This document shows positions 2,222 through 61,825 of a DNA stretch of 64,000 nucleotides, in pieces. A program made the position numbers and the translations under genes. This DNA is from Octopus vulgaris. Lineage: Eukaryota. The notes beneath the pieces are model-generated. The model was not told the origin of the DNA, searched no databases, and saw only the letters and a program-made list of their open reading frames with translations. Position 1 is the first letter of the stretch, and every line of letters begins with the position of its first letter. The stretch covers positions 27,962,001 to 28,026,000 of the forward strand of contig OX597816.1 in assembly GCA_951406725.2 (NCBI GenBank), in the 5' to 3' direction.

Positions 2222-2436
2222 GTGTAACTCGTAAACACCAGTCGTTTTTTTCCCTATCTCCTGTTGCCCACTTTGGGATCTTTCTTTCCTCTCTCTTCCT
2301 TCTTTATGTTTCCGACGAAGAGCTCCGCTCGAAACGTCATACCTTCCTGCTTCCATTTCCTGAGCGCCTATTAATAATAATACTGTAATTGTTCCATTGT
2401 TGTTGTTTTTTTGTTTTCCCGTTTGGATTAAAATTA
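2222..2436 (+). mobile_element. Short Penelope-type pseudo-LTR-like module, family B, carrying a minimal hammerhead motif
   Basis: Aligns by eye with the reverse complement of 30235-30442 (gtaac.tcgt...gatctttc...tatgtttccgacg.agagctc.gctcgaaacgt...cctgagcg...taatac...gtttggattaa). Ends in a (TA)n tract. Confidence 0.7.
2308..2342 (+). ncRNA. Minimal type I hammerhead-like motif, variant core CCGACGA
   Basis: gttt-CCGACGA-A-GAGC(tcc)GCTC-GAAAC-GTC-atac. Stem II is 4 bp, stem III is the palindrome ACGT, and there is a GUC triplet. Stem I pairs at 3 of 4 positions. Confidence 0.6.
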
Positions 2437-15491: not shown

Positions 15492-15496
<5 letters not shown>

Positions 15497-15690
15497 GGAA
15501 AGTTTACGAAAATAAACAAAAGACGAAGGCAGGTGTAGTACAAGCAGACAAATGTATTAGTATAGCGCTCAGGAATAGAAAAAGTATTTTACGTTTCGAG
15601 CCTACGCAGTTCGACAGAAAGATACACAGAAGAAAACAAGGAGAGAAAAAATACGTGTAGGAGCTGACGATCTATCATGGCGTCCTGACT
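15492..15690 (-). mobile_element. Short Penelope-type pseudo-LTR-like module, family A, with a hammerhead-like motif
   Basis: Homologous to 24090-24265 and 31478-31612 and flanked on both sides by (TA)n. Minus strand of 15584-15625 reads ttt-CTGTCGA-A-ctgc(gtag)GCTC-GAAAC-GTA-aaa, with stem II damaged in this copy. Confidence 0.7.
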
Positions 15691-17139
15691 TCGGACATAT
15701 ATATATGTATGTATATATTTATGTATATATATATGTGTGTGTGTGCATGCATGAGTGTGAGTGTGTACACACACATATATATTTATACACATCTATATAT
15801 AATTACACACACGCGCACACACACATATATTGTTGTATTTGGAGATAAAAAATTGACAATTATGATTTGGGTCGTTCATATCATTTACTGCAGATTAGTA
15901 ATATCAATGAGATTCTAGAACCATTTGTTATATTAAAAAAACAAACTATGCTTTCATTTTAAGAGGAAAATAGATAGATACAATAACGTTTGTGGCTATC
16001 TAATGCTTGATGGTAATTAAGTATGAAAAAGATAACTTAGTATAGTACGGCTTTTACGCAATATATTTCTAAAACACAACCCTGCATTTTTTAGCATTTT
16101 CTTTACGTTTCAAATTGACAAATGATATACTGTTATTCCCTGTGTAATTTAGATGCAAATGGTTACAGTCAAAAGTTGTTTGAAGCCAATTAACAGAACT
16201 TTACGGTTTGACACTACTCATTATAATTTTCCAAAATTTCTACATGGACAATTTTTTTTTTCGTATTCGTAACCATTTTGTTTCAGCAATAAACAATAAC
16301 AGAAGATTGAAATTTTGTTTTTTGATTTTATTTCCGCCAATCAGATGCATCAACTCTAGGCAGTCGGAATTGCTCTATTCTCTTGCAACATTTGATTTTC
16401 GTTTTTTATGACACTTGTTCACCTAGTATTATTTTTAACTATCAAAACTCATATAGTTTTAAAGGTATTAACTTCCAAATCTAATTCTACATTTTATAAT
16501 CAGTCTTAATTTTGTCAAATATATTGAATACAAAAATTTCAGAAATTTAGATGTTTTTTTTTTTAGCAAATGCTTACTTTCAACTGATAAACACGTAGGA
16601 TACCAGCCAGCGCAACCTCAACTAATGATAATAAATTTACACACACTGACAAAAACACGCACACACAAACATACAGAAACACAGCCCTGAAACACACATG
16701 CAGACATATTTACATACATATATACATTTGTGTATTTATGTATGAATGTGCGTATGTATGTGTCAAAATATGTAATATGAAACAAGAAAAAATTTTATTT
16801 GAAAATATCTGTATTTTATCTCATCAAAATGCTGGGAAACAAAAATAAAATTCTATCTTATTGACAGTTATGTATACAGATATTTATTATATGCACAACT
16901 GGCGAACATATTCTGTTTTCCCAAGACTTGTATGTTTAATTAGCCTTCCTAATTTCTGTCAGTGAATTCTTGTTGCTGGCATCGAAACAAAAATGTTTTC
17001 AATCAAGTAATAACAGCTAAAATAGTTTAACTAAAACATAAGTGCAATGAAAAATGATAGATGTATATGAGCTGAGTTTGTAAAGTATAAAATTAGACTA
17101 CAGATAGGCTAATAGTTATATTTCAGTTTGGATAGTCTA

Positions 17140-18580
17140 TGTTTGTGTATGTATGTATGTATGTATGTATGTATGTATGTATGTATGTATGTATGTATTA
17201 TGTGTATGTATGTATGTGTGTATGTATGCACGTATGCATGTGTGCATGGATGTATGAATGTATGTGTGTGGATGTATGTATGTATGTATGTATGTACGTA
17301 TAAATGTATATATGTATTATGTGTATGTATGTATGTGTGTATGTATGCACGTATGCATGTGTGCATGGATGTATGAATGTATGTGTATGGATGTATGTAT
17401 GTATGTATGTATGTAGTAGAGTGTATGTGTATGTACGTATGTACGTTGAGTGTATGTATATATGTATGTATGTATGTATGTATGTAGTAGAGTGTATGTG
17501 TATGTACGTATGTACGTTGAGTGTATGTATGTATGTATGTATGTATGTATGTAGTAGAGTGTATGTGTATGTACGTATGTACGTTGAGTGAATGTATATA
17601 TGTATGTATGTATGTATGTATGTAGTAGAGTGTATGTGTATGTACGTATGTACGTTGAGTGTATGTATGTATGTATGTATGTAGTAGAGTGTATGTGTAT
17701 GTACGTATGTACGTTGAGTGGATGTATATATGTATGTATGTATGTGTGTATGTAGTAGAGTGTATGTGTATGTACGTTTGTACGTTGAGTGTATGTATGT
17801 ATGTATGTATGTAGTAGAGTGTATGTGTATGTACGTATGTACGTTGAGTGGATGTATATATGTATGTGTGTGTGTATGTAGTAGAGTGTATGTGTATGTA
17901 CGTTTGTACGTTGAGTGTATGTATGTATGTATGTATGTATGTAGTAGAGTGTATGTGTATGTACGTATGTACGTTGAGTGAATGTATATATGTATGTATG
18001 TATGTATGTAGTAGAGTGTATGTGTATGTACGTATGTACGTTGAGTGGATGTATATATGTATGTATGTATGTGTGTATGTAGTAGAGTGTATGTGTATGT
18101 ACGTTTGTACGTTGAGTGTATGTATGTATGTATGTATGTATGTAGTAGAGTGTATGTGTATGTACGTATGTACGTTGAGTGTATGTATGTATGTAGTAGA
18201 GTGTATGTGTATGTACGTATGTACGTTGAGTGTATGTATGTATGTATGTGTGTATGTATGTATGTAGGTATGTATGTAGTAGAGTGTATGTGTTTGTACG
18301 TATGTACGTTGAGTGTATGTATGTATGTATGTATGTAGTAGAGTGTATGTGTATATACGTATGTACGTTGAGTGTATGTATATATGTATGTATGTATGTA
18401 GCAGAGTGTATGTGTCTGTACGTATGTACGTTGAGTGTATGTAGGTATGTATGTATGTAGTAGAGTGTATGTGTATGTACGTATGTACGTTGAGTGTATG
18501 TATGTATGTATGTATGTATATATGTATGTATGTATGTAGGTATGTATTTATGTAGTAGAGTGTATGTGTATGTACGTATT
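17140..18580. repeat. (TATG)n-derived minisatellite, about 18 units of 50-75 bp with core GTAGTAGAGTGTATGTGTATGTACGTATGTACGTTGAGT
   Basis: The core recurs from about 17413 to 18578, separated by variable (TATG)n runs. Two copies of about 120 bp precede it at 17195-17400. Confidence 0.95.
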
Positions 18581-23328: not shown

Positions 23329-24089
23329 ATTATGGTACACTCTCCTCGTATATGTCAATCATAATTGCAGTACCAAACAAAACTTTTATGCCTTTTGTTC
23401 CAATTCATGCAGCTAGATTGAGAAAAATAGTTACTGTTTGCCGTACCAAGAAGTTACATAGAAAGTATCAGTGTGATAATTTAATTCAACACTAATTCAA
23501 CAATAATTTCATTCAACACTAGCTTATTATCTACCACCCAATAAAAACATCATAAACGAATGGATTACATTTATGTTAACTATGTGCAAATTTCCGATCA
23601 ATCAATATAATTTATTTATTGAAATTACGTGAAATTTCGTTCAATTCGGCTAGGTTTTGAGTCCATGTTTTTGTACGTTTTCCTAAGTGATATAAGCTGC
23701 AAAGGTGGAACGCTTTGGCAATACGCTGGTAATTGAAACAAATGGAGGTTGTAGCAGTTTCCCTCTCACTCTATAACACATTTATGAGATAAAGAAGCAA
23801 TATGTATGTGAAAGAATACTCGAAAAGTTGTCATATGACCTATGGGTAAAAAATTAAGTAATATTTAGAGACGTGTGTGTAGTGTTGCAATATTAACAGA
23901 AATGTAGATTCATAATTCAAATTCACAACAAAATACCTAAGACACAACATTTGATAAGAAGCCATATGATAAGAAAGCCATAGACCTATGGATGGAGAAT
24001 AGGTCATAAAAATATGTATATATACATACATTCATGCACATACACATACATTAACACATACATATATATATAAACATGTATGTATGCAT

Positions 24090-24265
24090 TTTTTCTCTCC
24101 TTTTTCTCTCCTTTTTTTCTCTCTTTTTTCTGTGTCCTTTTCTGTAGAAGAGCGTAGGCTCGAAACGTAAAATACTTTTTGTATTCCCGAGTGTTATACT
24201 AATACATCAGTTTGTTTTGTACACCACCTGTCTTCGTCTTTTGTTTTTTTCGTAAACTCTCCCTA
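24090..24265 (+). mobile_element. Short Penelope-type pseudo-LTR-like module, family A
   Basis: Homologous to 15492-15690 and 31478-31612 and flanked by microsatellites. Confidence 0.7.
24134..24175 (+). ncRNA. Minimal type I hammerhead-like motif, variant core CUGUAGA
   Basis: ttt-CTGTAGA-A-GAGC(gtag)GCTC-GAAAC-GTA-aaa. Stem II is perfect, stem III is the palindrome ACGT, and there is a GUA triplet. Confidence 0.6.
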
Positions 24266-30909: not shown

Positions 30910-30947
30910 CTGTTACTCTGAGTTTCTCGTTGCCGTTCATCAGACAG
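30910..30947 (-). ncRNA. Type I hammerhead ribozyme motif, canonical core
   Basis: ctgt-CTGATGA-aCG(gcaa)CGa-GAAACTC(a)GAGTA-acag. Confidence 0.75.
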
Positions 30948-30970
30948 TTTTTGCCAGATTCTAGCAAAAA

Positions 30971-31008
30971 CTGTCTGATGAACAGCAATGGGAAACTCAG
31001 AGTAACAG
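30971..31008 (+). ncRNA. Type I hammerhead ribozyme motif, canonical core
   Basis: ctgt-CTGATGA-aCA(gcaa)TGg-GAAACTC(a)GAGTA-acag. Confidence 0.75.
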
Positions 31009-31477: not shown

Positions 31478-31612
31478 ATAGGGAGAATTCACGAATAAAA
31501 CAAGATGAAGACAGGTGGTGTAGAAAACAAACAGATGTATTAGTATAACGCTCGGGTATTGAAAAAGTATTTAACGTTTCGAGCCTACGCTCTTCCACAG
31601 AAAGTAACACAG
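31478..31612 (-). mobile_element. Short Penelope-type pseudo-LTR-like module, family A, with a hammerhead-like motif
   Basis: Minus strand of 31567-31608 reads ttt-CTGTGGA-A-GAGC(gtag)GCTC-GAAAC-GTT-aaa. Abuts (TA)n. Confidence 0.7.
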
Positions 31613-32013
31613 ATTTTTTTTTACGTGAGGAGGAAATTAAAGCAAAGGCGTGAGAAGACGAAAATATGCGAGGTGGGAGAAGAAAATAAAAACAGAGAAA
31701 GAAGCGATGGAGATGGAACAAATAGAGAGAAAGTGGGGAGAAAGGGAGAAGAGAAGACGAAAGGAGAAAAGAAATGTAGGGAGAGGGAGGCAAAGTAACA
31801 GGTGGAGATTACAGAGAACAGAGTAAGAACAGCCAGAGTAGCAAGAAAGGACAAAAGGAATGAACAGAAAGTACAAGAAAGTTTAGAAAGTATAAAAATA
31901 ATAACATTAATAATAGTTCTACCTAAAGTTCAAAGAGTTCAAATGTTTCAGACGTCGCTGTGTGTGTGTGTGTATATATATATATACGAATATATATATA
32001 TATTTATACATAC

Positions 32014-61000: not shown

Positions 61001-61825
61001 CATTATATAAAAGGGCTTAGTAAACTAACTTTGCCGCATACTGAACTCATTAGAAATAGCAGCTAAAAAAAACTTTTTTAAAACTATTTCCAATACTTAA
61101 AGAAAACCTCTCTCATATAGTGTTTGCTCAATTCAACTCACAAAAGTATGGGGGTAGAGACATTAAAAAATCAAATGCAAAGGTTATTTGAGAACGTACG
61201 TTTCAAGATTAGTCAAAATCGACACTTCTATCATCAGCTCAGAATTCTCTGGTTTGGATTTGAAAACACTGAAAGTAGGAGCATACCCTTTCGGCTTGTT
61301 ATCGCTTCTGAAGATCTGCTCGAAACTAAACAGTGGCAACAAACTCAAATATGCAAGCGAAGAATTTTTGCTCTCCCCCTTAATGTCTCGGATTTTACCG
61401 AAAAAAGCATAGTGTTTGCTGATTTTAACCCACGCTGGTGGAAAGGGGAGAGCAAAAATTCTTCGCTTGCATATTTGAGTTTGTTGCCACTGTTTAGTTT
61501 CGAGCAGATCTTCAGAAGCGATAACAAGCCGAAAGGGTATGCTCCTACTTTCAGTGTTTTCAAATCCAAACCAGGGAATTTTGAGCTGATGATAGAAGTG
61601 TCGATTTTGACTAATCTTGAAACGTACGTTCTCAAATAACCTTTGCATTTGATTTTTTAATGTCTCTACCCCCATACTTTTGGGAGTTGAATTGAGCAAA
61701 CACTATATGAGAGAGGTTTTCTTTAAGTATTGGAAATAGTTTTAAAAAAGTTTTTTTAGCTGCTATTTCTAATGAGTTCAGTATGCGGCAAAGTAATTTA
61801 TTTTACTAAGCCCTTTTATATAATG
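61001..61825. mobile_element. Foldback element / large MITE with near-perfect TIRs of about 380 bp, TA-flanked
   Basis: Arms at 61001-61378 and 61445-61825 differ by only a few substitutions and one small indel. TA lies at 60999-61000 and 61826-61827. The mirror-image 171-aa ORFs confirm the symmetry. Confidence 0.9.

Follow-up and report, generated by a model that had tools for sequence, protein, structure and literature searches.

A Hammerhead-Like Motif with a Fixed A6-to-U Core Change at the 3' End of a Penelope-Like Retrotransposon in Octopus vulgaris

Hammerhead-Like Motifs in the Window

The window analyzed here is a stretch of 64,000 nucleotides from Octopus vulgaris, the genome of which extends over 2.8 Gb and is rich in microsatellites. 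Three hammerhead-like motifs are present in it, with C3 located at 24142 on the plus strand (core CTGTAGA, H17 = A), and at 15617 (core CTGTCGA, H17 = A) and 31600 (core CTGTGGA, H17 = U) on the minus strand. All three had been listed in a first-pass annotation, in which the minus-strand motifs are given by their lowest coordinates, 15584 and 31567, and the constancy described there for U6, the extra A, the GTAG loop and GAAACGT is borne out in each of them. The three copies are 79-87% identical over approximately 128 columns, and each belongs to a different subfamily. Their features are listed in Table 1.

Table 1. Coordinates of the motif-bearing insertions and associated features in the window.
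Feature	Position	Strand	Remark
5'-truncated 3' end (pseudo-LTR part) of Neptune-type Penelope-like element, A7 subfamily	24088..24263	+	within TA/CA microsatellite
Stem I, 5' strand	24138..24141	+	TTTT here, CTTT in family
Core C3 U4 G5 U6 N7 G8 A9 and extra A between 9 and 10.1	24142..24149	+	U6 = 24145, N7 = 24146
Stem II GAGC/GCTC with GTAG loop	24150..24161	+	G10.1-C11.1 pair present
G12 A13 A14 A15.1; ACGT palindrome at 24165-24168, predicted dimer stem III	24162..24169	+	
H17 = A, predicted cut on its 3' side	24169	+	layout as in PMC4209133
Stem I, 3' strand	24170..24173	+	AAAT here, AAAG in family
Second copy, C7 subfamily	15494..15697	-	motif 15617-15590, stem II damaged
Third copy, G7/U17 subfamily	31481..31613	-	motif 31600-31573
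Segment resembling 5' end of near full-length element L073	31635..31960	-	73% over 123 nt, E 3e-9

The insertions in the window are decayed and incomplete at the 5' end, and no matching RT or endonuclease sequence was found there by tblastn. In the second copy, a private double change from GAGC to CTGC has removed two of the four stem II pairs. Since AAAT stands after the predicted cut site in place of the AAAG of the family, the fourth pair of stem I is lost in all three copies; this change from G to T after AAA was observed in 24 of 175 copies, the three from the window included, and is spread over the subfamilies. The informative object is the genome-wide family rather than the decayed copies in the window.

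Several other observations were made in the same region. The segment resembling the 5' end of L073 directly abuts the hammerhead-bearing 3' end of the third copy. A 5' end joined straight to a 3' end was also seen in L073 (1716-1950), L270, and L011, as in an internal deletion or a template jump. L073 itself is apparently near full length, with no hammerhead upstream of its 5'-end sequence. Elsewhere in the window, an inverted repeat of 316 nt is located at 61066-61757, its arms 99% complementary and each carrying two CTGANGA...GAAAC stretches (61308, 61586, and their mirrors). A small hairpin element at 30918-31000 displays CTGATGAA...GAAACT on both strands, and a minisatellite with units of approximately 59-67 nt lies within CA/TA repeats at 17300-18500.

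The Parent Element

The motif belongs to a Neptune-type Penelope-like retrotransposon that has been amplified recently, and it constitutes the minimal type I hammerhead at the 3' end of this element. A DNA search gave 2,209 candidates, 40 of which were scored. It can be observed in 30 loci that the 3' end is fixed and followed by TA-rich repeats, while the 5' ends are variable. Upstream of the motif in two longer copies a decayed GIY-YIG region was recognized, and a protein search with this region gave 7,186 candidates, 150 of them scored; the motif, located by a short anchor, lay downstream in 20 of 30 loci from that search. U6 was present in all 14 long-ORF copies (open frames of 655-853 aa), and in most of them the motif lies approximately 104 nt upstream of the 3' end. 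Pairwise identity between their coding regions is 93-99.6% (median 97.7%).

A single ORF with RT and, at its C terminus, a GIY-YIG domain is situated upstream of the motif, which is the layout of Penelope-like elements. For both proteins compared with Pfam, RVT_1 was above the cut-off and GIY-YIG was weak (E 0.07-0.08, below the cut-off) with its motif residues visible; three decayed endonuclease fragments gave no Pfam match. CSRPRCRTC, found in all three proteins compared, constitutes a CX4CXXC linker and fits the CX2-5CxxC definition in PMC8557442; Nematis and Naiad have the linker as well. Judged by eye against the alignments in PMC8557442, the RT resembles the Neptune1_Ap rows and the linker the Neptune1_Nv rows. 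The linker, the domain order, and the (TA)n targets fit the definition of Neptune in that source, and the assignment is to be read as one from these sequence features together with an RT likeness by eye rather than from a tree. Furthermore, the bias towards (TA)n targets, 5' truncation, partial tandems, and inverted copies are all present in the family, and neighbors within 600 nt occur at 14 places among 242 motif matches, 8 of them tandem and 6 inverted.

Constancy of U6 and Change Along the Subfamily Ladder

Genome-wide, 15,730 exact matches to the motif with U6 were obtained and none to reversed control patterns, so the motif is not a product of chance. Exact matches with A6 numbered 180, and the family accordingly departs from the min-HHR core CUGANGA at A6. 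The same T-to-A change at U4, used as a control, gave 106 exact matches, placing A6 in mild excess. Within the oldest flank type, position 6 was U in 86, C in 8, and A in 6 of the first 100 of 271 matches. U also made up 98-100% of the depth when contigs from four runs that bear four further organism labels were aligned to an A6 copy, one of these runs having only 5 contigs at position 6. The A6 copies do not represent a surviving canonical subfamily, since A6 copies, approximately 50 of which were collected deliberately, are found in every subfamily. In a tree of the two oldest clusters built without position 6, A6 copies were unclustered (15 changes, with 243 of 500 shuffles as low); they are scattered private reversions. 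One U6 minimal hammerhead with a different stem I and loop was also seen in MDSQ01015757.1 (L243), a contig from a metagenome collection, where as a single instance it may be a private change.

Clustering of 193 distinct copies on flank columns gave 8 groups, one of which, with 3 copies, was left out, and the seven subfamilies can be arranged by age into a ladder, with divergence falling from 11% to 2.6%. Along this ladder, a clustering made in the present analysis from copies mostly picked by core pattern, N7 reads T, T, C, G, A, C, T, corresponding to 5 steps (at least 3 by parsimony), and H17 switches three times, between A and U only. The other 26 motif columns underwent 0 steps, compared with 52 steps in 101 flank columns (0.51 per column). 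Nominally, this contrast gives a Poisson P of approximately 1.5e-6 and a Fisher P of 6e-5, values that are too small because the core pattern served to choose most loci and rates vary along the flanks. It should be noted that the free positions, 7 and 17, coincide with those left free in the hammerhead core consensus of PMC7151607. The fold is under selection in the A6U family. Selection on a hammerhead fold with a fixed, non-canonical U6, as proposed in the first-pass annotation, is supported; the invariance of U6 taken by itself is not significant, as 65 of the 101 flank columns are likewise without a step.

Among 45 copies picked other than by the core pattern, U6 was found in 44, N7 was A in 12, C in 9, G in 4, and T in 20, H17 was A in 28 and T in 17, and at least 42 of the 45 agreed at each remaining column. 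The 23 non-exact copies displayed scattered or CpG changes only, and no recurring non-CpG core variant occurred among the 68 copies picked without an exact core match. The GTAG loop of the A6U family (family A) is as constant as the core. Positions 7 and 17 vary far more than their neighbors, and CpG decay, suggested earlier as an alternative origin of the variation at position 7, is ruled out for the A7 and G7 subfamilies, which it could not yield; it possibly lies behind one C-to-T step at that position. The earlier statement that the cleavage base is never G holds within the A6U family, where G17 accounts for 159 matches (approximately 1%) and the statement reflects three source-lineage changes at position 17, but it fails for a sister lineage that has been amplified with G17.

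Sister Lineages and Stem Covariation

The same scaffold with 3-nt loops, termed family B, has 12,216 exact matches genome-wide, and position 4 was C in 74, U in 24, and A in 2 of the first 100. Family B includes a canonical U4 subfamily and, furthermore, a subfamily with G17 represented by approximately 250 exact matches with flanks in common; its fourth stem I pair is A-U (L244-L268). Other loops contribute 1,198 matches, mostly with a canonical core. The 3-nt-loop sister lineages and the A6U family have downstream sequence in common, and all sister lineages keep the canonical A6, from which U6 is therefore, on comparison of the sequences, most likely derived. Two family B copies lie in the window, at 2312-2338 (+) and 30368-30342 (-), with the core CCGACGA (U4C), the same stem II, and a 3-nt loop. 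A third family (L038, L101, L102, L131) displays a canonical core and a stem II that is longer and different.

In 19 aligned rows hand-picked from all lineages, C3, G5, G8, A9, G12, A13, A14, A15.1, U16.1, and the ACGT palindrome are invariant throughout. Only positions 4, 6, 7, and 17 and loop II move in any lineage, the unpaired catalytic bases being invariant. The hammerhead register of stems I and II, the extra base after A9, and G10.1-C11.1 were all found, as were the conserved min-HHR bases C3, G5, G8, A9, G12, A13, A14, and A15.1-U16.1, a free N7, and an H17 that is not G. In the 19 rows, 96.7% of the cells in stems I and II are paired, compared with 21-49% for slid partner controls. 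Two-sided changes occur in 6 of the 8 pairs, 5 of these 6 depending on two distant rows and those in stem II coming from one distant row (family C) alone. Moreover, 110 of 148 copies of family A have C-G as the fourth pair of stem I. Among 42 copies of family B, this pair is G-C in 21, A-U in 15, and G-U in 4, and among 33 copies of the other lineages it is G-C in 12, C-G in 9, A-U in 4, and G-U in 3. Stem I covaries between lineages.

Predicted Folds and Truncation at the Cut Site

U6 is predicted to favor a rod that prolongs stem II with the pairs G8/A9-G12/A13, U4-G16.2, G5-C15.2, and U6-A15.1. The rod pairs of G5 and U6 have a probability of 0.81-0.98 in all three U6 copies folded and of at most 0.22 in all three A6 copies, and the energy gain in the matched pair L123/L135 is approximately 1 kcal/mol. 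Across the 19 rows no two-sided change was found in the rod pairs, and the third pair is impossible in 8 of them. A strengthening of the same rod helix by the U4C of the sister family was not supported, the energy model giving a probability of 0.01. In each of three natural tandems, the predicted minimum lies 13-21 kcal/mol below the double-hammerhead fold; the ACGT palindrome (15.1-16.1) is invariant, yet the double fold is disfavored by the energy model. Folding z-scores of five single copies ranged from -0.70 to 0.41 and were not significant. No hammerhead appeared among the 150 Rfam matches listed out of 364 for the window, and local covariance-model scans gave no match for a U6 copy or for an A6 copy, a blank that has no bearing on U6.

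A genomic test of cutting compared 5'-truncated copies starting at the cut site with those at a loop control site. The cut-site pattern had 44 matches. True truncations made up 6 of the 30 that were inspected and, as judged from the match alone, 3-5 of the other 14. At the loop control site, where TA microhomology is equal and the baseline is double (8:16), the corresponding figure was 21-23 of 27. No excess of truncations at the cut site was observed genome-wide, the ratio being near 1 after the 8:16 baselines. A footprint of cutting, hinted at by 2-3 of 5 motif-less copies, was gone in this genome-wide test.

Slow Cutting and Its Alternatives

As judged from sequence, the A6U hammerhead may be a strongly slowed ribozyme for which cutting after position 17 requires either dimer formation or the protein of the element, a reading we regard as evenly poised. 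Activity would be lowered by the loss of the A6 contacts, and pairing of U6 with A15.1 would close the monomer into the rod. Some cutting after position 17 would probably remain, two copies could pair via ACGU, and the RT-endonuclease protein might serve as a chaperone, slow cutting then being what selection preserves. Slow, helper-dependent cutting is favored because the indispensable hammerhead bases are unchanged in all lineages and the large fixed changes are located at positions with active natural variants. The two large fixed core changes in the clade fall at positions 4 and 6. Strong cutting by the A6U RNA is unlikely: the slowing of cutting by the related A6C, the rod favored by U6, and the missing excess of truncations at the cut site speak against it, and the low activity of CUGA-turn mutants, the amplified G17 subfamily, and the energy of the double-hammerhead fold weigh against the slow-cutting reading as well. 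Between slow cutting and no cutting, preference is given to the former, to which about half of our confidence is assigned, followed by a fold kept for recognition.

According to the latter proposal, which is possible but attracts less of our confidence, the hammerhead no longer cuts, and its sequence and fold are kept for recognition by the RT-endonuclease or a host factor approximately 100 nt from the 3' end of the RNA. The rod, predicted in every U6 copy folded and absent in every A6 copy, agrees with this proposal, but its pairs lack two-sided changes, cannot all form in every row, and are not strengthened by U4C. Three damaging core changes (A6U, U4C, and G17) fixed in amplifying lineages of one clade, together with a GTAG loop that matches the core in constancy, also point to recognition; against this, the catalytic unpaired bases are invariant while so few other positions move, and the G17 subfamily is small. 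The lack of a truncation footprint at the cut site is consistent with a hammerhead that no longer cuts. For the element studied in PMC11167929, hammerhead mutants left in vitro insertion unaffected, in agreement with a recognition role, but the hammerhead core was not needed in the minimal template, which argues against it.

A wider reading, which appears doubtful, is that in this clade a hammerhead that once cut itself freely has come to serve as a switch gated by protein, or purely as a recognition fold, with the A6U rod being opened only by the element's protein or by a second copy. As a part of this reading, and no less doubtful, canonical ancestors would have given rise to the most successful lineages, in each of which a different core change (A6U, U4C) became fixed. 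The graded series canonical, U4C, A6U, and G17 on one scaffold would reveal whether cutting matters for retrotransposition.

It is improbable that U6 came about as a neutral accident in a single source element that proved successful, the motif being carried along without function. A single origin of U6, the lack of significance of its own invariance, and the use of the core pattern to pick most loci are compatible with an accident; the 26 columns with 0 steps against 0.51 per flank column, the absence of a recurring non-CpG core variant among the 68 copies, and the compensatory stem I changes between lineages are not, so that an accident accounts for U6 but not for the conserved block. Improbable too is a conditional ribozyme that would be silent as a monomer in Mg2+ and switched on by Mn2+ or dimer formation, with cutting timed in this manner: the rod predicted for U6 monomers, the tandem or inverted neighbors, and the Mn2+ preference reported in PMC7151607 are in its favor, but that preference concerns A6C rather than A6U, and the rod gains approximately 1 kcal/mol in L123/L135.

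Hammerheads in Penelope-like elements are near universal, poor cutters in vitro, and were dispensable for insertion in the one reconstituted system. Here, a natural test set is provided by one scaffold occurring as canonical, U4C, A6U, and G17, each in hundreds or thousands of copies, within which the A6U family offers near-intact ORFs. If the A6U RNA cuts, A6U is added to the few natural core variants; if it does not, a ribozyme has been converted to a signal. Moreover, searches anchored on CUGA miss whole high-copy families such as A6U.

Comparison with Known Systems

Minimal hammerheads in Penelope-like elements and natural variants at position 6 are already known, and a fixed A6U is apparently undescribed; it was not found in the literature searched, a set to which Lunse et al. 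on Penelope hammerhead variants does not belong. Further background is given in PMC6765202, PMC6155905, PMC11014351, and bioRxiv 10.64898/2026.07.22.740005.

The Penelope-like min-HHRs of Cervera and De la Pena (2014; PMC4209133) occupy the same position in the element and share with the present motif the extra base between 9 and 10.1, G10.1-C11.1, a 4-bp stem I, the lack of stem III, the palindromic 15.2-16.2 (CG), and mostly solitary truncated copies. They differ in that A6 (CUGA or UUGA) is present in all 56 representatives of Fig. S3 of that work, whereas U6 is fixed here in more than 15,000 copies; the descriptor used for that set demanded A6. Minimal pseudo-LTR hammerheads are described there as cutting weakly, and only as multimers or with an added stem III.

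The A6C hammerhead of phage Bcep176 (Perreault et al., 2011, PMC3088659; Naghdi et al., 2020, PMC7151607) likewise has a natural pyrimidine at position 6, although it is C rather than U and belongs to a single three-stem phage ribozyme, in contrast to the high-copy animal retroelement motif studied here. Natural A6C cuts at less than 0.1 per min, which is low but detectable (PMC3088659), and A6C moves two hammerheads to a preference for Mn2+, by more than 10,000-fold in one of them, with Mn2+ rescuing activity (PMC7151607). Low but real activity is reported for natural U4C and A6C variants (PMC3088659, PMC7151607), and when the CUGA turn was subjected to pairwise mutagenesis, activity was low for every one of its single mutants (PMC9901934).

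The Neptune clade (Craig et al., 2021, PMC8557442) shares RT, the CX4CXXC linker, GIY-YIG, (TA)n targets, and a hammerhead near the 3' end; canonical hammerheads are described there as universal in such clades, whereas the core of the A6U family is non-canonical. The Poseidon PAc hammerhead of Anolis (PMC11167929) is also minimal, located in a pseudo-LTR, and Penelope-like. In that study, cleavage occurred only when the element's protein was added, hammerhead mutants of this one element had no effect on insertion in vitro, a minimal template sufficed without the hammerhead core, and no RNA-seq reads ending at the cut site are reported for it.
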